Assembly: GCA_030429835.1 (NCBI GenBank)
Contig: JAUIGC010000002.1
Coordinates: 524 to 64,523 of the forward strand
Length of the DNA: 64,000 nucleotides
Reading direction: 5' to 3'
Source of the DNA: Bacteroidia bacterium
GTDB taxonomy: Bacteria; Bacteroidota; Bacteroidia; Flavobacteriales; Flavobacteriaceae
Below the pieces are notes generated by a model. It did not search any database. It saw only the letters and a program-made list of their open reading frames with translations, and was not told where the DNA came from. Of this stretch, positions 2,852 to 43,762 are shown one piece after another (the stretch's first letter is position 1; each line of letters begins with the position of its first letter). Made by a program: the position numbers and the translations under genes.

Positions 2852-3204
2852 GTGACCTCAATAGGATTCGCTTCGCACCTCCCAAAAAAGCTTCGTAGTC
2901 TAAATGAAAAGCTCCAAACCTTTTGTTTAGTATCTTTTCTATTTTCACTTCGCTTATTGAACATGTTCAAAGCTTGTTCAAATAAAAAAGCCCGCCATAG
3001 GCAAGCTTTTCATTCTTATGTGACCTCGACAGGATTACCTTCGGTGTTCCTTTGAATCCCCTCCTGAAAATAGAAAATCCAATTGCTACGCAATTTCTTT
3101 TTGTTTCACTATGAATTTTAAAAACAGAGTTTTCAATTCTCAGTAAAACAAAAATCCATCACATTCGTGATGGATTTTCTGCTTTAAGTGACCTCGACAG
3201 GATT
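2852..3204 (-). repeat. tRNA-linked tandem array: copies of the tRNA-Arg 3' end at 2852, 3020 and 3188 (168-bp period)
   Basis: gtgacctcaataggatt (2852), gtgacctcgacaggatt (3020), gtgacctcgacaggatt (3188, the tRNA itself). Confidence 0.85.
3151..3178 (-). terminator. Terminator downstream of tRNA-Arg
   Basis: aaaatccatcac-attc-gtgatggatttt hairpin with A/T flanks. Confidence 0.75.
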
Positions 3205-3262
3205 CAAACCTGTAACCTTCTGAGCCGTAATCAGATGCGCTATTCAGTTGCGCCACGAGGCC
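3189..3262 (-). tRNA. tRNA-Arg(ACG)
   Basis: Reverse complement GGCCTCG...TCTGA-TTACGGC-TCAGA...GGTTTGAATCC...CGAGGTCA folds as a cloverleaf with anticodon ACG; CCA not encoded. Confidence 0.95.
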
Positions 3263-34539: not shown

Positions 34540-35403
34540 TTGTTAAGTCATAAAACATATTTAAATCATAGTACATTACCTTGGGTAACGTTCATAGATG
34601 GAGCAGGGGGTATTTTCTCGATTTGGAATAAACAGCTTCCCGAATTTCAACGTCATTATAATGTACTGGTTATAGAATTAAGGGAAAAGGACAGTCCACT
34701 TTTTTCAGTGGATAATTTAAATATTGATGTAATTACAAATGAAATACTCCGTGTATTGGAGTATGGGAATATAGATAAATCTCATTTTATAGGTTTATCG
34801 CTGGGTACTGTGTTTATAAGGAATTTTGCATTGAAATATCCCCATCGTATCCAATCGATGATTCTTGCGGGTGCAATTATTAATATTAATTATCGTCTTC
34901 GTTTCTTGTTATGTGCCCAAAAATTGGGCGATAAGATATTTCCATTCCATTCCCAATTTAAGTTTTTCGTGTATTCCCTATTGCCGAATAAGAACCACAA
35001 GGAATCCAGGTTGTTTTTAATTAAACGGGCAAGGAAGTGGCACAAGGAAGAATTTTTGAAATGGGCCGGATTTACAAAGAAATTAGATCCTATACTAAAT
35101 TATCTCTATTCTGAAAAATCGGATATTCCTTGCTTATATATTATGGGCGAGGAGGACAAACTTTTTCTTTCATCGGTAAGGAAAATATCCTCAAGCAAAT
35201 TGGGGTCCCTTCTTTTTATAATTCAAGATTGTGGGCATATTGTTAATTTGGAACAAGAAGAGCTTTTTAACAAGATGGTGATTGGATATATAGTAGGATT
35301 GGAAGGAGTATCTGAAGTAGTTAGGCCCTACTTGGAAGATTTTAGTAAATGCAGCCCTGAGGAGGTATTGATAGCTAATTCAAATAACCACTCTAAAAAA
35401 TAA
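34540..35403 (+). CDS. Alpha/beta hydrolase (MenH-like), divergent
   Basis: GLSLG nucleophile elbow, MGEED, CGHIVN; N-terminal motifs altered (DGAGG); C-terminal tail overlaps the ncRNA candidate in antisense. Confidence 0.7.
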   Translation: MLSHKTYLNHSTLPWVTFIDGAGGIFSIWNKQLPEFQRHYNVLVIELREKDSPLFSVDNLNIDVITNEILRVLEYGNIDKSHFIGLSLGTVFIRNFALKYPHRIQSMILAGAIININYRLRFLLCAQKLGDKIFPFHSQFKFFVYSLLPNKNHKESRLFLIKRARKWHKEEFLKWAGFTKKLDPILNYLYSEKSDIPCLYIMGEEDKLFLSSVRKISSSKLGSLLFIIQDCGHIVNLEQEELFNKMVIGYIVGLEGVSEVVRPYLEDFSKCSPEEVLIANSNNHSKK

Positions 35404-35465
35404 GACAGAAATTCTTTTCTTAAGGTAGTCTCAGAGCTGCTTTATTACTACTGATTTTGATTGTT
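35345..35465 (-). ncRNA. Candidate structured ncRNA copy 1 (6S-Flavo-like)
   Basis: Closing stem gcagctctgag/ctcagggctgc; homologous to 42045-42156; shared upstream box and -7 TTTG; ends approximate. Confidence 0.6.
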
Positions 35466-35468
35466 CAT

Positions 35469-35549
35469 CAAATAAACTAACTCTTTAGATTTCAACGGGT
35501 AAATCCTATAAACATTTCCTTATCCGATGAATTTTTACTTAGTTTTTAC
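35469..35549 (-). promoter_or_regulatory. Conserved activator-box/promoter, copy 1
   Basis: CAAA(35469)-N24-gggtaaatcc-tataaacatttccttatccgatgaatttttactt. Confidence 0.7.
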
Positions 35550-35813: not shown

Positions 35814-35849
35814 AAACCGCCAATCATTGGTAAAATGAAATGGCGGTTT
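35814..35849 (-). terminator. Terminator of the susCD operon
   Basis: aaaccgcca...tggcggttt inverted repeat about 30 bp after the last gene. Confidence 0.6.
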
Positions 35850-35881: not shown

Positions 35882-36748
35882 CTAATTGATGCATAGGGGA
35901 GGGTTGGGGCCAAAAGGGCCTAAAATGGTTCCGTCCGGTTTTTCTACGGTATATACATGTTCTTCTTCAAAACTTCCTGGTGTATAGGACACTACCAAAG
36001 AATTGGTCCCCGCTGGCACGTTGACGACATGAATAGTAGCGCTACCATTAGGTACGGTGTAGGTCGTTGCGGTGCCATCAATTGTAAAGGTTACAAAAGC
36101 ACCATCCCAACCATCACCATAAAGATCTTGCATGTCCAAAATCCAATCTCCTTCAATATTTCCCATTTCCTGTGGACAAGGAATTGCAAAACCAAAATTA
36201 AAGGCATTGCGATAGCCTTGCTCATCAAATAGGTCATTGGTGTTATTACCACCTGATATTTCCTTTGTGGTACTGTTGAAACTCAGGCGTTCTGGACCAT
36301 ATACAGTTCCTGCGTCATTGATGGCCGTTCCCAAAAAAGTGAAGGTATCCCCAAATCCGATGTCCGAGATTTGAACCCCCAGTGTGGCTGCAATATCCGT
36401 TACGTTAATATTGAGGGTTGTCGGAAAGGAATTGATTTCGCTTCCAAAGTTAACAGTGTCAGTAGGTGTCCCGGATAGGGTGCCAAAGACCTGCAAGGTG
36501 TAGCTATCCACATTTTCATCCGGAGCTTCAAAAGTCGTTGGAATACTTAAATTGGCTAATTCATCTAAAGTATTGATGTTAACGACCGTTGGAAAAGGTG
36601 TGGCTAACCGAACAAATCCTCCTTTTTGAAAAACATCCAAATTATTCTTTTCTTCATCGTCGCAGGAACTAACCGTTATAATTGCGAATGCTAGCAATAA
36701 AGTGGGCCACATTCTTAAACAAATTTTATTTTTTATATACTGTCGCAT
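35882..36748 (-). CDS. Surface lipoprotein downstream of susD
   Basis: Lipobox VSSC then acidic DDEE export signal; C-terminal MQDLYGDGWDGA beta-sandwich motif. Confidence 0.75.
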   Translation of the reverse strand: MRQYIKNKICLRMWPTLLLAFAIITVSSCDDEEKNNLDVFQKGGFVRLATPFPTVVNINTLDELANLSIPTTFEAPDENVDSYTLQVFGTLSGTPTDTVNFGSEINSFPTTLNINVTDIAATLGVQISDIGFGDTFTFLGTAINDAGTVYGPERLSFNSTTKEISGGNNTNDLFDEQGYRNAFNFGFAIPCPQEMGNIEGDWILDMQDLYGDGWDGAFVTFTIDGTATTYTVPNGSATIHVVNVPAGTNSLVVSYTPGSFEEEHVYTVEKPDGTILGPFGPNPPLCIN

Positions 36749-36764
36749 AATTATCTATTTATGA

Positions 36765-38381
36765 TTATTGTAGATTATTAGGATTGGTATCCCAAAATAC
36801 TTTTGTAGTTACTGGTTTTTGGTCAATACTTGAATTCGTATTCACTACCGAGGCAGGGTACAGAAAACTCCTTGGGAACTCACCGGGCGTGGCAACGTGA
36901 GGAGAAAGGTCGCTCGGCATGCTTGTCCTACGATAATTGTTCCAAGCTTCAAATCCATTGCCCCAAAGCGCAATGTAATATTCCTTCATTATGATATCCA
37001 ATCTTTCGTTGTCATCAACTGCGGAATCATATTGGGCCAAAACAAATGTGATATAGTCCTCCACATCCTGTGTGCTCGGGGCAAAAGCTGCATCTACCTG
37101 TCCCGGATTAAAGTTTAGCACCTTATCCATTGAAGCACGTATGCCTTCTTCCAATAGGGTACGTGGATCTCCAATAGTATTATTGGTTAAAGCGGATTCT
37201 GCCTTTAAAAATTTTACATAGGTTGATAACATCAAGGGAAATATGCCAGCTCCAGAAGCACCCTGGTTGTTTACCACGGAAGTGAAGTTATCTGCATCGA
37301 ATGCCCCCCCAACTGGATAAAGTCCGTATGTAGTTCTTTTAAGCTGATCCGGCGGTACACCTTCGTCATCGCCATGATCTCTTGTCCAATAAAAATCGCC
37401 TAGATAGCAAAAATTATAGCCAGGTTCACCTTCACAAGGTAAATCATCACCGGTTGGTGTTTCGGCAATCTGCCTGTAAAAGTAATATCTAAGACGGGGG
37501 TCTTCAAAACCTTTATCCGCCTTTAATAGGTTTACATAATAGCTGTTCAAGTAGTCGTCCGCTCCATCGGCATCGTAGCACAAAACAAAATAGGGGTGAC
37601 GGCTTTCACCTGTGGCACTCGCAACGGTTGAATATTTAAATTCAAAATCATCTGCAGAATCTTCGATAATGCCACTTGCAATGAGACTGTTTATTTCTGA
37701 TGAAAAATCACCTATCAGCTTCATTTGAAGATACATTTTAAACTTTAAAGTGTTGGCCAATTTTATCCATTGTGTTTTGTTGCCGTAATAAAAAAGATCA
37801 TTGGGCATTACCGAGTTTGGAGTATTGATTGCTGCTATGCCTTCATCTATGACATCAAACATGGCATTATAGATGGCTTGGCCATCATCTAGTTTAGGAT
37901 TGGGGAGATCATTGCCGAATAAGGCTTCGGAGAAGGGAACCTCCCCAAAAGTATCTACAAGTACTACATAGGAATATGCCTTTAGGATTTTGGCAACGCC
38001 AACATAACCTTGAAGTTCTCTTTCCTCTGCTAAAGGAATCAGTACGCTAATATCCTGCAAGGTTTCCCTGTAAAAATCTGTCCATATATCATCTATGGCA
38101 CTGGAAGCCAACGAAAAAGGACCTGCATATGCACCAAAAAGATGCTGCATCCGTACGAATTCTGCCGCCCGTACATTTATACCGTCTTCGTTATCTTCAT
38201 TATACGCAATTGCCCTCATAAATTGTAATTGCACGTTATTCAGCAATAATTCAGGGTCGGCACTGCTAGGTGTTAAGTTACTGGGATCTTCCAATTGGTT
38301 TAAATCTCCTACCTCACAATTTAATAGTCCAAAAATGAGGAGTAGTAATAGATATTTTGATTTATTTTTTATCGTTTTCAT
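36765..38381 (-). CDS. SusD/RagB family lipoprotein
   Basis: Lipobox LLNC; LVDTFGEVPFSEA, W.KLANTLK, DPRL, GFEAWNNYRRT, VFWD. Confidence 0.93.
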   Translation of the reverse strand: MKTIKNKSKYLLLLLIFGLLNCEVGDLNQLEDPSNLTPSSADPELLLNNVQLQFMRAIAYNEDNEDGINVRAAEFVRMQHLFGAYAGPFSLASSAIDDIWTDFYRETLQDISVLIPLAEERELQGYVGVAKILKAYSYVVLVDTFGEVPFSEALFGNDLPNPKLDDGQAIYNAMFDVIDEGIAAINTPNSVMPNDLFYYGNKTQWIKLANTLKFKMYLQMKLIGDFSSEINSLIASGIIEDSADDFEFKYSTVASATGESRHPYFVLCYDADGADDYLNSYYVNLLKADKGFEDPRLRYYFYRQIAETPTGDDLPCEGEPGYNFCYLGDFYWTRDHGDDEGVPPDQLKRTTYGLYPVGGAFDADNFTSVVNNQGASGAGIFPLMLSTYVKFLKAESALTNNTIGDPRTLLEEGIRASMDKVLNFNPGQVDAAFAPSTQDVEDYITFVLAQYDSAVDDNERLDIIMKEYYIALWGNGFEAWNNYRRTSMPSDLSPHVATPGEFPRSFLYPASVVNTNSSIDQKPVTTKVFWDTNPNNLQ

Positions 38382-38408
38382 TTTTTCTTTTTTAGAATTT
38401 TGAGCCTT

Positions 38409-41400
38409 TTAAAAGGTAGCCTTTATACTAAATCCATATTTTTTTGAAGTTGGGGTGGTTTGAAAATCAAGACCACTTCCATTACCTACTCCTGTGCTAA
38501 TTACTTCAGGGTCAAAATTGGTATACTTAGGAACATTGGGCGCCCAATACCAAAGATTTTGTCCCAATACACTAAAGGATAATGAGCCAATAAAAGAATC
38601 CTTCAAAAATTTTCTAGGTAAATCATACGTCAAAGACACTTCACGTAACCTCCATACGGACCCATCAAAGATTTGCTGACCACTAGGATCCAAATAGTTT
38701 AAGAAATACACCTCATTGGCACCCTGCTGAATGGCATTTGGTATTTTGTTCCCATTAGCATCTAGAAGAAGTTCTCCTGTGGACGGATCAGCATAGAACC
38801 CTGGAGTTACAAAAGTGCCTTCCCTATTTTCCGTATCACGGGTAACCCCTCTTCTTAAAAGGTTAGCAATGGTATTGGAAGAAAAATCGCCTCCATGTGT
38901 ATATTCCAATTGAGCGGATAGGCTTAAACTTTTGTAGCCAAAAGTGTTTATGGATGTAGCCTTCCAATCTGGATTGGGATCTCCAATAATCTCATCGTCC
39001 AATCCCACGGCAGAACTATCAAAAATATTTCCAGTAGTAGGGTTTATCAGATAGTTTCCTTCGTCATCCTTAAGGGCATAGCTTCCTTTAATTACGCCTA
39101 AAGGTTGTCCTTCAACCGCATAGTTTCCATTGTTGGAAAAACCTGATATGAAGACATCGTCACCGCCGGGCAAGTCAACAACTTCACTTTCCGCAGCAAA
39201 GAATATCCAATTTGATGTCCAACGGAAACCTTCTAAATTATTAAAAGGAGTTATACCGAGATTTACCTCGATACCCTTGGTGTTAATTTTTCCAGCATTT
39301 ATGGTAGTTCTATCGAAGCCAGTGGATGAGTCAAGAATTTTACTTAAAATCTGATCTTTGGAATCTCTCTTGAATACACTGGTTTCTAGATTAATCCTGT
39401 TTTTCCATAGGTTGGTTTCAAGACCCAACTCAAATTCCCTGTGAAGTTCCGCCTTAAGTTCCGGATTGGGGAATACATCCAAGCCTGTCTGCAAGGCACT
39501 ACTTGAGTTTACATTAATAGTTCGCCCGCCCCTATCTGTAAAAAGTGAGGTTCCAAGGGCTAGAATATTTCTTGTGTTATAGGGACTCGGAAATCCTGCC
39601 GAGGTACCGTATCCAAATCTTAGTTTTAAGAAATTGAGGAAATCAGATTGCATTTCTGGAAAAGCAGAAGTAGGCACTATGGACATTGAAGCACTTGGGT
39701 AGAATAAGGAACGGTTGCTCTGTTCTATAGTGGAAGTCCAATCGTTTCTTCCTGCTAGCGTTACATAAAGAAAGCTATCATAGTCAAATTGCAATTGACC
39801 ATAGAGACCCAAGGTATTTTCGGTCTGCTTAAAATCAAGGGAACTTCCTAGTGGATCCGCATTACTCTGGGTGGCAAAATTGTTGTGGTCTATAAAACCG
39901 AACACCACCTGTCCCGTACTTGCAACTCCAAATTTATCATAACGTTCAGAATTTGCATTGAAACCCAAAGTTCCATTTAATCCTAGCTTTTCACTAAACC
40001 TGACATCCTTAAGTGATAGAATTAAACTATGGTCCCAAATGGTGTTTATTGCAGCAGTGGTCTTTAAAAAACCGTTTTGTGCCAGTATACTGCTTACACC
40101 ACCTTTGTTTATATAAAACTGTTGTTTTTCAGTATAGGTGTCATAACCCAACCTATAGGTAAGGGCAAGGTTGTCATTGATGTCATAGTTGGTACTTATT
40201 GAGTTGAAAAATCGGTTAACATCAATAGACTCTTGGGCATTGTCCACTAGCCATAAAGGATTTTCCTGATCTGTTCTATAATAAACACTGGATCCGTTAA
40301 TGGGGTCTTGGTAGGGTAGGTTGGGTAGATCAAAATTTCGGGGTATAAATAGGGTTCTTGTAAAAATGGAGAAGTTCCCAGTGCCGTTATCCGCAGAAAC
40401 GGGCGGCGTAGTAAAGTCGCTTGTCGAAAAGTTAAAGGCACCCGAAATCGTAATCTTGTTACTAAGCTTCATAGACCCCCCAAGGCCAAAACTTACCCGT
40501 TTGATGTTGTTCCCAGGAACAAAACCATCTTCGTCCGTGTGTCCAAAGTTAAAATTATAAGAAACGTCCTCTTTGGATTTAGAAGCATTTATGGAGGTTG
40601 TAGTCCCTATTCCTTGTCTGAAAAAATCCTTGATATTATCCTTATAAGGCTCGTACGGAATATTTACACCCTGAAATTCAGGAAATGAATTGGCAAGCCT
40701 TGCATCGTTATATGGATGCCTTACGGTAAAGTTTCCATCAAACCTCCCTCCCCAGTTTCCTACGAAACCAACGTTTACGGAATTATCGCCACCTTGCCCA
40801 TATGTATTTTGATATTCGGGTAGATTCGCTATCTGGTTTACAAATACAGATTGACTTGCGGTTATTTCGAAACCCTTTTCTATCGCATCAGTCTGGCCTG
40901 TTTTTGTGGTAATGAGTACCACACCGTTCCTTCCCGCATCTCCATAGAGAACTGTTGCACTAAGTCCCTTAAGAATACTAATGTTTGCAATATTATTGGG
41001 GTCAATGTCCAAAAATCGACTAGAAGCAGAAACTGAACCGTTACCCGTGCTAACATTACTTTCGGCATTTGTGTTAGTATTGAAAGGAATGCCATTGACT
41101 ACGAAAAGTGGTTGATTGTTACCGGTGATGGAAACACTTCCCCTAATGGTAATGTTTGTGCCACTACCTGCCAAGCCACCAGTACCTACGATATTAACAC
41201 CTGCAACCTTTCCATTGAGTACCCTGGCAATATCGGCTTCCGGTCTACTTTGAACGGCATCTTCACCCAATGTAGTAATGGCATAACCCAAAGCCTTTTT
41301 TTCTCGCTTAATACCTTGGGCGGTTACAATTACCTCTTCCAACTGAGCGGCATCCTCTACCATGGTTACATTGATTACATTTTCTGAACCTACAGTCCTT

Positions 41401-41642
41401 TCCTCTTTTCGCTGACCTATATAGGAAAACACAAGGACCTGGCCCGGGGAAACCTCAATGGCATAGTTTCCATCAAAATCGGTTTGAATTCCTGAAGTGG
41501 TGCCCTTTATCAAAATATTGACACCAGGTAATGGAACACCCCCTTCATCAACTACATTACCCGTTACGGTTTTTTGTTGTGAATATGCCCATGTCATTCC
41601 CGTGAGAAAAAGCATAAACAACCAAATACATTTTTTTTTCAT
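38409..41642 (-). CDS. SusC/RagA TonB-dependent receptor
   Basis: LEEVIVTAQGIKRE, PLFVVNGIP, ILKGLSATVLYG..GRNGVVLITTK plug; C-terminal Phe. Confidence 0.96.
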   Translation of the reverse strand: MKKKCIWLFMLFLTGMTWAYSQQKTVTGNVVDEGGVPLPGVNILIKGTTSGIQTDFDGNYAIEVSPGQVLVFSYIGQRKEERTVGSENVINVTMVEDAAQLEEVIVTAQGIKREKKALGYAITTLGEDAVQSRPEADIARVLNGKVAGVNIVGTGGLAGSGTNITIRGSVSITGNNQPLFVVNGIPFNTNTNAESNVSTGNGSVSASSRFLDIDPNNIANISILKGLSATVLYGDAGRNGVVLITTKTGQTDAIEKGFEITASQSVFVNQIANLPEYQNTYGQGGDNSVNVGFVGNWGGRFDGNFTVRHPYNDARLANSFPEFQGVNIPYEPYKDNIKDFFRQGIGTTTSINASKSKEDVSYNFNFGHTDEDGFVPGNNIKRVSFGLGGSMKLSNKITISGAFNFSTSDFTTPPVSADNGTGNFSIFTRTLFIPRNFDLPNLPYQDPINGSSVYYRTDQENPLWLVDNAQESIDVNRFFNSISTNYDINDNLALTYRLGYDTYTEKQQFYINKGGVSSILAQNGFLKTTAAINTIWDHSLILSLKDVRFSEKLGLNGTLGFNANSERYDKFGVASTGQVVFGFIDHNNFATQSNADPLGSSLDFKQTENTLGLYGQLQFDYDSFLYVTLAGRNDWTSTIEQSNRSLFYPSASMSIVPTSAFPEMQSDFLNFLKLRFGYGTSAGFPSPYNTRNILALGTSLFTDRGGRTINVNSSSALQTGLDVFPNPELKAELHREFELGLETNLWKNRINLETSVFKRDSKDQILSKILDSSTGFDRTTINAGKINTKGIEVNLGITPFNNLEGFRWTSNWIFFAAESEVVDLPGGDDVFISGFSNNGNYAVEGQPLGVIKGSYALKDDEGNYLINPTTGNIFDSSAVGLDDEIIGDPNPDWKATSINTFGYKSLSLSAQLEYTHGGDFSSNTIANLLRRGVTRDTENREGTFVTPGFYADPSTGELLLDANGNKIPNAIQQGANEVYFLNYLDPSGQQIFDGSVWRLREVSLTYDLPRKFLKDSFIGSLSFSVLGQNLWYWAPNVPKYTNFDPEVISTGVGNGSGLDFQTTPTSKKYGFSIKATF

Positions 41643-41795
41643 ACTTAAAGATTTAAATGAGTTAGCTATGAATCCAATAATACAAGTGATAGTCTTTTTG
41701 GTTTATATCCGTAATTGGTGCGACGCACTTTTAAGAAATGGAAATGGTTTTTTGGATATTACCTTTAGAGCCATTGTTGCATTAGTCATTCAGGC

Positions 41796-41876
41796 CAAAG
41801 TAAATGGGTCCCATGTTCATTCTGGGAAATGCTTATAAACGTTTACCGTTCCGATGAATCTTTACTTGTGGTTTAC
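41796..41876 (-). promoter_or_regulatory. Conserved activator-box/promoter, copy 2 (susC promoter)
   Basis: CAAA(41796)-N24-gggaaatgct-tataaacgtttaccgttccgatgaatctttactt; 33/43 identity to copy 1 from TATAAAC onward. Confidence 0.7.
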
Positions 41877-42044: not shown

Positions 42045-42156
42045 CAAAGTGCAGCCCTGAAGGGTTTGATGACTAATTCAAACAAAACTCCTGAGGTTTT
42101 TAATGCTATTTCCTTTGGAAGATGTACTTCAGAGCTGCTTTATACATTGCAAAAAC
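42045..42156 (-). ncRNA. Candidate structured ncRNA copy 2 (6S-Flavo-like)
   Basis: Closing stem gcagctctgaag/cttcagggctgc; internal GGAGTTTTGTTTGAATTAG; homologous to copy 1; ends approximate. Confidence 0.6.
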
Positions 42157-42161
42157 CAATT

Positions 42162-42221
42162 CAAAGAAACATGCTCCATATTAAAAAAGGGGAAACACCT
42201 ATAAACGTTTACGTAGCCGAT
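42162..42221 (-). promoter_or_regulatory. Conserved activator-box/promoter, copy 3
   Basis: CAAA(42162)-N24-gggaaacacc-tataaacgtttacgtagccgat. Confidence 0.65.
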
Positions 42222-42238
42222 TGAAGGTTACTAAGTTT

Positions 42239-43762
42239 TTACGATCTAATAACCTCGGAGCAAACTTTCCTCTGGTATTCGCTCGGTGTAACCCGAGTGT
42301 CTTTTTTGAAGGCTTTGTTGAAGGTTACTTTATTATTAAACCCGACCTCATAGGCCACATCAATGATGTTGAGGTTCTTTTGAAAATCCGTATTAAAAAT
42401 TTCCTTTGCCTCGTTGATTCTATATGTGTTCACCAGTTCATTAAAGTTCATATTAAAGTGTTCATTGATGACCTGGGACGCATTGTGCCTAGTTGTGTTG
42501 AGCCTTTGGGCTACTTTTTCAAGGTTTAAATCATTTTCCTTGTGAATTTTTTCAACCTCAAAAAGTCTAATAAGGTGTTCTCTAAGTTCATGTGAAAGGC
42601 TATTGGTCAATCCTGATTTTTCGTATTTAAAGAAAAGATTTTTAAAGGAAGATGTTCCATTGAATACATTGGGTTGGACATTGGCGCAATAGCCAATATA
42701 CATGACCATTGCGGCCATACAGATAATTTGAAAATGAATTAAGAAATCCGCCATTTGGTAATTGGTGATTAAAAGGCCATAGGCCGCATAACAAAAAACA
42801 TACGAAATATGAATGAAATAGATATTTCTTTGCCAAATTCTGTTTTCCTTATTTATGCCTTCTTGTTTTTTTGATTTTCTATACAACTTTCTTATATAAA
42901 AACCATAAACTATCAAGGATATAAGCTTGAGAATAACGATTATCATTAACTCAGTGGAAACGCCAAGATTAAGACTTCCACCCGAATTCCCTTGAATTAA
43001 GTTAAACTTTTCCTCAGCGGGTAGTAGGTATATTGGTGTAGCATAGACCAGAAAAAGAACGGTAGGTAAAAGATGCCATATATCCTTTACCCTAAATTTA
43101 TATTTCTGAGTTGTTCTTTTAAAATAAAAATAGAGAAGCGGCCCGTATAAAAAACTAAATCCGGTTGACATTAAATATGTATGTGGGAATTTATAGTGAT
43201 AATTGGTGATATTGAAACAAATATGGAGAATAAAAAAAGAGTGGATAAATATGAAACTGCTAATTAAAATCTTGGCAACCTTATCTATTTTTTTATTAAA
43301 ATGGATAACTACAGCAGTATAAAAACCAATCAGGCATACATATAGATACAAGAAGGACCAGATAGTAAACTTAGGGTTGTATTTCTCTGAAACCTCGACA
43401 AATTGATCTGTTTCCCTAATTTCATCGAACCAAGAGTCGGCCAAAACATCCGTATTGAAATCTGCATGTAAATATTCTTCAATGTAGGATATGCTATGGT
43501 CCACGTCATTGAGTGCAGAATAGCTTTGGGCCATTTTTTTTAGGACGGGAGCGGGTTCCATAACTTCCATTTCCAGTACTTCCTTGTAGCTTTCAATGGC
43601 CTCTGGAAATTTTTTCTCGGAAAATAGAATATTTGCTTTGTCCAATACTGGTTGAGACACTTTTTTTCCATTGACCTTTAAAGGGTCTATTGCAATGCTG
43701 GTTTTGGAAAGTCCATAAGTGCTCAACAGTAAGAATGTGATTAAGATTCTTATTTGTAGCAT
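42239..43762 (-). CDS. Membrane-anchored AraC-family regulator (signal peptide, TPR-like periplasmic domain, about 7 TM helices, C-terminal AraC HTH)
   Basis: C-terminal NFNELVNTYRINEAK...IIDVAYEVGFNNKVTFNKAFKKDTRVTPSEY; hydrophobic core with FLYGPLLYFY and WHLLP. Confidence 0.92.
   Translation of the reverse strand: MLQIRILITFLLLSTYGLSKTSIAIDPLKVNGKKVSQPVLDKANILFSEKKFPEAIESYKEVLEMEVMEPAPVLKKMAQSYSALNDVDHSISYIEEYLHADFNTDVLADSWFDEIRETDQFVEVSEKYNPKFTIWSFLYLYVCLIGFYTAVVIHFNKKIDKVAKILISSFIFIHSFFILHICFNITNYHYKFPHTYLMSTGFSFLYGPLLYFYFKRTTQKYKFRVKDIWHLLPTVLFLVYATPIYLLPAEEKFNLIQGNSGGSLNLGVSTELMIIVILKLISLIVYGFYIRKLYRKSKKQEGINKENRIWQRNIYFIHISYVFCYAAYGLLITNYQMADFLIHFQIICMAAMVMYIGYCANVQPNVFNGTSSFKNLFFKYEKSGLTNSLSHELREHLIRLFEVEKIHKENDLNLEKVAQRLNTTRHNASQVINEHFNMNFNELVNTYRINEAKEIFNTDFQKNLNIIDVAYEVGFNNKVTFNKAFKKDTRVTPSEYQRKVCSEVIRS

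Follow-up and report, generated by a model that had tools for sequence, protein, structure and literature searches.

Introduction

The small RNA (sRNA) FopS represses the translation of susC and is described, in the account cited here, as an RNA with a free 5' seed and a terminator (PMC11697453). MicF and MicC of Escherichia coli are antisense RNAs of about 100 nt, each encoded beside a porin gene; they cover the start region of a paralogous porin and thereby repress it (sections of PMC5745476). The same source describes the co-induction of micF and ompC and the activation of micF by SoxS and MarA. For the phylum, the sRNAs with a tested function that we found belong to Bacteroides and Segatella of the gut (table in PMC13750123). 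Of the two most abundant outer-membrane components reported for Flavobacterium johnsoniae, one is a SusCDE whose function is unknown (PMC12611786).

Here we describe two copies, A and B, of an RNA-like element that flank a susCD operon in a member of the Flavobacteriaceae. They are likely to be antisense RNAs like MicF and FopS that are induced together with a spare SusCD and repress a conserved SusC. This proposal builds on what is observed directly: the sequence, the covariation of the stem, the operator, the co-occurrence with a regulator, and the complementarity together with its co-variation.

Results

Two copies of a putative structured RNA

The window, by which we mean the whole 64,000-nt stretch that was analysed, contains two copies of a putative structured RNA on the minus strand. 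A sequence-only reading had proposed a duplication at 42051 and 35351, and the copies are as it described them in position and letters. Both start with GCAGCCCTGA on the plus strand and share an exact 15-mer at 42129 and 35431 (15/15 in blastn). Folding of the minus strand bears out the pairing of the ends, with a U-G pair in both copies and an 11th pair that is A-U in A and G-C in B. RNA A (42051..42138, minus strand) is closed by an 11-bp stem (42128-42138 with 42051-42061), as is RNA B (35351..35440, minus strand). The loosely paired interior, put earlier at about 65-70 nt, is a loop of 65 nt in A and 70 nt in B. The predicted transcript of A runs from about 42156 to about 42043, judging from the promoter position and the extended stem, and that of B would run from about 35462 to about 35345 (both minus strand).

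The local alignment of A with B scores 60, whereas 2000 shuffles average 17 and reach 33 at most, and the A/B match in the genome-wide nhmmer search has an E-value of 0.008-0.05. A and B are the only full copies in the source assembly (G000, 82.6% complete). The conserved core of A, with the seed UUUGAAUUAGUCAUC, is located at 42068..42090, and the seed of B, UUUGAAUUAGCUAUC, at 35370..35387; a second antisense segment of B occupies 35394..35413 (all minus strand). The 15-nt seed is kept with at most one change in all 54 distinct free copies, as UUUGAAUUAGCUAUC in 28, as UUUGAAUUAGUCAUC in 22 and with one change in the other 4.

The interpretation of the copies as paralogous structured RNAs is supported by their similarity above shuffles and by a covarying stem. 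Covariation in homologues had been set beforehand as a test, and it is found in the closing stem: among 54 distinct free-standing copies, 97.9% of 803 cells are paired, and 7 of the 11 pairs show two-sided changes. None of 500 shuffles reaches the same covariation, and sliding the partners reduces the pairing to 26-45%. The 54-copy alignment was fitted to the model R1, with loci whose sequences were already listed left out. An unfitted MAFFT alignment of 20 sequences is 99% paired, with two-sided changes at 2 pairs. For the stem, 65 G-U pairs are counted against 5 A-C pairs, and this excess favours an RNA made from the minus strand. The folding z-scores are -2.9 (A) and -2.6 (B) for the minus strand, and -2.3 and -1.6 for the plus strand; a plus-strand RNA is rejected on the basis of the folding and the G-U bias. 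Both RNAs consist of a single terminal stem and a hairpin of 4-6 bp, while the rest of the interior does not covary. A terminator scan (loop limit 8 nt) found no U-tract terminator 3' of A or B, and discrete 3' ends would therefore need processing. This suggests that the 3' ends would be made by trimming or by cleavage at the stem.

The last ~17 codons of a hydrolase ORF (34540-35403) overlap B on the opposite strand. Coding constraint was considered as the cause of B conservation and rejected, since the overlap is found in only 3 of 9 relatives and B is equally conserved elsewhere. The overlap is lineage-specific and does not explain the conservation of B.

The susCD locus and its putative operators

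On the minus strand, the locus is ordered as an AraC-family regulator, A, susC, susD, a 288-aa gene, an inverted repeat and B, followed by the convergent hydrolase. The regulator (507 aa; 42239..43762, minus strand) contains an N-terminal TPR-like part, at least five hydrophobic helices and a C-terminal AraC HTH. Among relatives with a species name, a protein of Maribacter litopenaei comes nearest (88%), and the host is accordingly Maribacter-like. BguR was rejected as its identity: the available sections of the preprint describe a LuxR-type protein, and AraC and TPR are absent from them (bioRxiv 10.64898/2026.01.10.698779).

A putative operator precedes A (42191..42231, minus strand, score 51.2). 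It is composed of two GTAAA..AT half-sites about 19-20 bp apart, to which the regulator presumably binds. Counterparts are located before susC (41825..41865, score 58.5) and before B (35498..35538, score 53.2), on the same strand. An operator matrix derived from 52 sites of other genomes finds exactly 3 sites in G000, at 51-59 bits, and nothing else above 14 bits. The operator common to A, susC and B predicts that they are co-regulated, and the earlier suggestions of inducible control and of a new sRNA class are both considered supported.

A putative promoter box before A (42162..42169, minus strand) is a non-consensus variant of the Bacteroidota -7-like element, with counterparts at 41793-41803 (susC) and 35466-35476 (B) on the minus strand. 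These putative boxes are assigned by the Bacteroidota promoter consensus; the sigma-70 promoter scan does not extend to Bacteroidota promoters.

The operon encodes a SusC/RagA TonB-dependent transporter (TIGR04056; 38409..41642), which is variable cargo, a SusD/RagB lipoprotein (36765..38381) and the 288-aa protein with a weak Ig-like match (35882..36748), all on the minus strand. The inverted repeat that follows (35814..35849, minus strand) was seen directly and is absent from the terminator scan with its 8-nt loop limit. It is likely a terminator between the operon and the B promoter.

The susC 5' leader (41643..41791, minus strand) is a degenerate third copy of the element that lacks the seed, with a mismatched version of the target at 41658-41669. 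Both the seed and a perfect site are absent from the local susC leader in 17/17 loci. The 5' end of the leader (41781-41791) is complementary to the hairpin loop of A, and a 9-nt complement is kept in 15 of 17 loci. The exceptions are L081, which is without A and has lost the complement, and L039, which has a B-type complement. It is possible that the 5' end of the local leader serves as a feedback or sponge site for A.

A and B are not 6S-Flavo

A and B resemble 6S-Flavo (RF01685; as described in sections of PMC2864571) in length, paired ends and phylum, and this resemblance had been noted before. Membership in the family is not borne out, as neither copy matches RF01685 at the gathering threshold (85 bits) or at E<=10. 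A cmscan-type check against Rfam returned nothing relevant on A or B, and a search of eight homologous loci gave nothing relevant and no 6S match. The sole Rfam match in the window is a tRNA-Arg with an ACG anticodon (3189-3262, minus strand). The internal GGAGUUU..GAAUUA segment proposed for the family does not hold either: the Rfam consensus has GGAGUUU as its 3' tail, with no GAAUUA after it. The letters of A that match GGAGUUU are not conserved in A-type copies of other genera.

The genuine 6S-Flavo of this genome is found on contig C52 (6628-6737, corresponding to 1501-1610 of L001), where it scores 105.7 bits against the cut-off of 85. Its neighbours are presumably zapA-like and rny-like genes, as read from their translations. 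When A and B are compared to this RNA, 216-407 of 500 shuffles score equally well. They do not form the long rod of 6S-Flavo, in which a central bubble lies between two conserved helices. 6S-Flavo is a single-copy RNA on C52, while A and B have neither a match to the model nor an alignment beyond shuffles. A and B are not 6S-Flavo.

Distribution and cassette exchange

The RNA pair is present in 12 of 69 genomes of the genus, and G239 contains a single copy. The regulator is found at 64% identity or more in the same 12 genomes and is absent from G239; two further genomes of the genus only have a paralog of it (31-32%). The gene order is kept in all 9 related loci fetched, and B follows the operon with its own operator in 9/9 relatives. 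Four loci (L085-L088) contain the regulator and B but no susCD, and tandem copies are found in L082 and L083. The own operator of B and its persistence without susCD support an action in trans.

Identity across 8 loci ranges from 28 to 99% for SusC, from 65 to 95% for the regulator and from 91 to 100% for PrfA, with L033 left out of the comparison for its broken susC frame. In the L033 assembly, susC and susD are split into several frames, by sequencing error or decay. In L038, SusC is 97% identical and the regulator 67%. As judged by sequence comparison, susCD (35882-41642 in the window) is an exchangeable cassette with at least three types at one locus (L038, L035, L039 and L040).

A broader search was performed with model R2, which is built from 33 elements and describes sequence only, with no structure. 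R2 matches 125 of 150 genomes of the family, and most of the matches listed cover loop positions only. Full-length matches occur in at least 28 of the 150, training sequences among them. The class-wide search of 150 genomes gave one weak partial match (G341), and there was no match in three genomes of another genus in the family.

The element as a susC leader

In distant genera, the susC leader itself contains the operator and the seed, 73-89 nt ahead of the ATG. Elsewhere in the Flavobacteriaceae, the element constitutes the first ~135 nt of the susC leader and is predicted to form a closed domain. All 17 leader-type loci inspected precede susC, with the regulator upstream in 16. When 16 leaders were folded, 15 left their own start region free, and the predicted pairing of the seed with it is ~0 in 15 and 0.19 in one. 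Folding thus disfavours the sequestration of the own start region in cis in the leader forms.

A Polaribacter locus (L091:9293-9522) has a seed-like stretch at the 5' end of the leader, with the usual loop seed missing. This stretch could pair with the start region of its own gene. G143, G101 and G156 contain three full-length R2 matches each, at two or more loci, and several susC loci in these genomes may carry an antisense leader.

The comparison of loci indicates that the ancestral form was probably a 5' domain of the susC mRNA, which was copied together with its promoter in the Maribacter group. In the simplest history that we infer, an antisense leader was duplicated along with its promoter, and the function in trans passed to the free copies.

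Complementarity to a conserved paralogous susC

Over 16 nt, the seed of B is perfectly complementary to the leader of a susC gene on contig C2, the closest paralog of the local susC in the source genome. The second segment pairs across the start codons of the susC genes on C2 and C63. Among 3651 start windows of the source genome, C2 susC is ranked first for B with a score of 20, which is equalled by the best match of at least 1 of 40 shuffles (mean best 15.9), and this single-genome ranking is suggestive only. After opening costs, the net pairing energies of B (in kcal/mol) are -18.1 on C2, -14.4 on C63 and -3.6 on the local susC; its best-energy partner in the source genome is the leader of an M20 peptidase (-19.7). 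The M20 peptidase leader was rejected as a conserved target because the long match is confined to close relatives. A ranking by RNAduplex over complete start windows was discarded as noisy, the top matches of A being G-U-rich artefacts.

The same target is found across the family. Partial R2 matches are antisense to the start of an M[KR]TK-type susC in all 43 cases inspected; these were one per genome, both strong and weak, among the 150 matches listed. In G000, the C2 and C63 susC starts are found at ranks 3 and 5 of 10. A target leader with GACTAATTC is accompanied by the same seed in L092, L097, L105 and L106, and one with AGCTAATTC by the B-type seed in L098 and the Maribacter group. In L111, an Aureibaculum locus, ATTAATTC stands in place of GCTAATTC in the seed and in the target alike. 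Outside the Maribacter group, the second segment matches the codons K-F-S-G, and within that group the codons Q-K-F. This segment covers the start codon in 38 of 54 free copies, and the first ~7 codons in leader forms.

Over 16 genomes, the loop-target score averages 25.3 for the own target and 19.7 for those of the others, and none of 20000 permutations is as high. The own target is ranked first in 6 of the 16 genomes and among the top two in 10. In this comparison kin are not independent, the targets were hand-picked, and the better of two paralogs was used for L083; L081 and L093, for which no such susC was retrieved, were left out. As judged from these alignments, a change of the loop from one genus to another goes along with a change of the target.

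The target site is present in 9/9 genomes without the RNAs and in 20/21 with them. It is therefore not maintained by the RNAs, and corresponds to a conserved leader that the RNA reads. Between genera of the Flavobacteriaceae, the ~25-nt leader of the M[KR]TK-type susC hardly changes, as seen in L117 and its 43 orthologous loci (L311-L354), and this extends to genomes that lack the RNAs. The target SusC itself is variable: for most members of the genus, identity over the N-terminal part that was aligned is 52-63%. The nearest solved structure for both the local and the target SusC is BT2264. BT2264 and RagAB carry peptides.

The target of A is less clear than that of B. No significant target was found for A in the source genome (best score 16.5; shuffles up to 17.5), and its net energy on C2 is -8.2. 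An exact A-type site before an ATG is present in 2 of 5 genomes, mostly ahead of peptidase-like genes. G095 and G101, which are from other genera and contain A, have a second susC with an A-type site, while the Maribacter counterpart of that gene has a B-type site. A may have lost its original target in the source genome.

Leaders complementary to the seed are also found in L259, L261, L263 and L264 and on contigs C318, C32 and C13 of G000, mostly before genes for secreted peptidase-like or BNR-repeat proteins (calls read from translations, M20 by NCBIfam). These leaders are not conserved gene by gene, and they hint at a possible wider target set in protein utilisation.

Discussion

Proposed mechanism

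Transcription of A and B, their ends, binding of the regulator, pairing in vivo and the sign of regulation are predicted elements of the following scheme. The membrane-bound AraC-family sensor would bind the three operators, and A, susCD and B would be switched on jointly. Each RNA would close by pairing of its 5' and 3' ends and present the loop of 65-70 nt. The seed would then pair with the first ~16 nt of the ~25-nt leader of the target, and the second segment would cover the AUG and the first codons, so that translation of the conserved SusC is blocked while the neighbouring susCD is induced. The local susC would escape through the loss of the perfect site from its leader. The net effect would be the exchange of one SusCD for another, like that of OmpF and OmpC by MicF. 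Induction may be linked to a new nutrient or to the avoidance of a receptor. A literature search on SusC as a receptor of Cellulophaga phages gave no usable support.

A broader and rather doubtful scenario is a surface-sensing, mutually exclusive transporter switch in marine Flavobacteriaceae. Here, an antisense domain built into the ancestral susC mRNA would act in trans to silence the conserved paralogous SusC, either as mRNA against mRNA or after being freed by cleavage at the closing stem. The replacement SusCD would be a horizontally exchanged, hypervariable cassette, and the exposed receptor would be changed under attack by phages or antagonists.

Alternative explanations

It is unlikely that the RNAs pair with the same target in order to protect or activate it, by shielding its 5' end from decay, or that they mainly feed back on the local susC. 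While the site does coincide with the 5' end inferred for the target mRNA, the start codon is covered in most free copies and the first codons in leader forms, and start-covering geometry of this kind represses in the cited accounts of MicF (PMC5745476) and FopS (PMC11697453). Feedback would fit the conserved 9-nt complement of the A loop in the local leader (15/17 loci), but this pairing is weak, at -10 kcal/mol before opening costs. The element could also act in cis, as a susC leader in which the seed pairs back with its own start, with the free copies being relics of a duplication of promoter and leader. It does constitute the susC leader in at least 16 loci of other genera, several of them with a seed complement before their own ATG, and the local leader is a degenerate third copy. 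We nevertheless consider a cis function quite improbable: the folded leaders show almost no pairing between seed and own start (~0 in 15/16, 0.19 in one), and the second segment fits the codons of the paralog and not those of the local gene. Furthermore, the seed is kept in 54/54 free copies and lost in the cis copy, and B outlives the loss of susCD.

The sequence-only reading favoured paralogous 6S-like decoys of RNA polymerase. The size of ~110 nt, the closing stem and the open interior are compatible with this, and the target transcripts have, at their inferred 5' ends, the sequence that the seed would template. This explanation has very little left in its favour when set against the lack of an RF01685 or 6S match, the presence of a true 6S-Flavo on C52 to which A and B have no similarity, and the absence of a second conserved long helix. 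The distribution is patchy and tied to one regulator, and the complementarity extends into the coding sequence of one gene family. A function of A and B as DNA-level repeats in the exchange of the susCD cassette is extremely improbable. As direct repeats, they do flank a cassette with SusC identities of 28%-99% that moves independently of the regulator (L038). However, the G-U bias (65 to 5) points to one strand, an operator is located ahead of each copy, the antisense match is to a distant gene, and tandem and single-copy arrangements occur. Repression of a conserved paralogous SusC by co-induced antisense RNAs remains the likely function.

Significance

If this function is true, an sRNA family of marine Flavobacteriaceae would be in hand together with its regulator, operator, target site and natural compensatory changes, and would be directly testable. 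It would also reveal an apparent path from a 5' leader to free sRNAs, through copying of promoter and leader, joined to a MicF-like exchange of SusCD. If the target is the counterpart of the F. johnsoniae SusCDE mentioned above (a candidate orthology), knowing what induces this locus would give a clue to what both transporters do.

Comparison with known systems

We found no earlier description of the A/B RNA in the open-licence literature; the additional files of PMC2864571 may list motifs outside Rfam. A and B are real and conserved and most likely work like MicF or FopS, as judged from their complementarity, although they depart from the structure of FopS and match no Rfam family.

FopS/GibS of Bacteroides thetaiotaomicron is described as having a single-stranded 5' seed and a terminator, occurring in 12-15 copies in Bacteroidaceae, binding RbpB and acting on many PUL targets (sections of PMC11697453). 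In contrast, A and B have a long loop closed by a terminal stem, 1-3 copies, one regulator and one susCD locus, and one paralog family as the predicted target. Their 5' end forms part of the stem, the seed is located internally, and there is no U-tract terminator. No Rfam family is matched by A or B, and in structure the published description of FopS sets them apart from it (sections of PMC11697453). An RbpB-like RRM_1 protein (PF00076) gave no match in G000, at 82.6% completeness. What A and B share with FopS is the computed complementarity to the susC region in which translation is initiated.

DonS of Bacteroides fragilis is, like A and B, an sRNA beside a susC locus. It is described as a divergent cis-antisense sRNA that represses its own locus (sections of PMC11697453 and PMC13750123), whereas A and B are co-directional with the operon and have their complement in another locus.

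A and B also resemble the MicF-ompC and MicC-ompN pairs, in which an antisense RNA is located beside an outer-membrane gene and is complementary to the start of its paralog. A corresponding complementarity, to the leader and start codon of the paralog of the adjacent gene, is clear for B and the leader forms and weak for the Maribacter A. The shared operator and the co-occurrence with the regulator are seen as well, and co-induction is predicted from them. Differences between the two systems can be observed. A and B are co-directional with the operon, carry their own copy of its operator, flank it in duplicate, have a TonB-dependent SusCD as the predicted target and are without an Rfam match. 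Unlike MicF and MicC, they are probably derived from the 5' leader of the operon itself.
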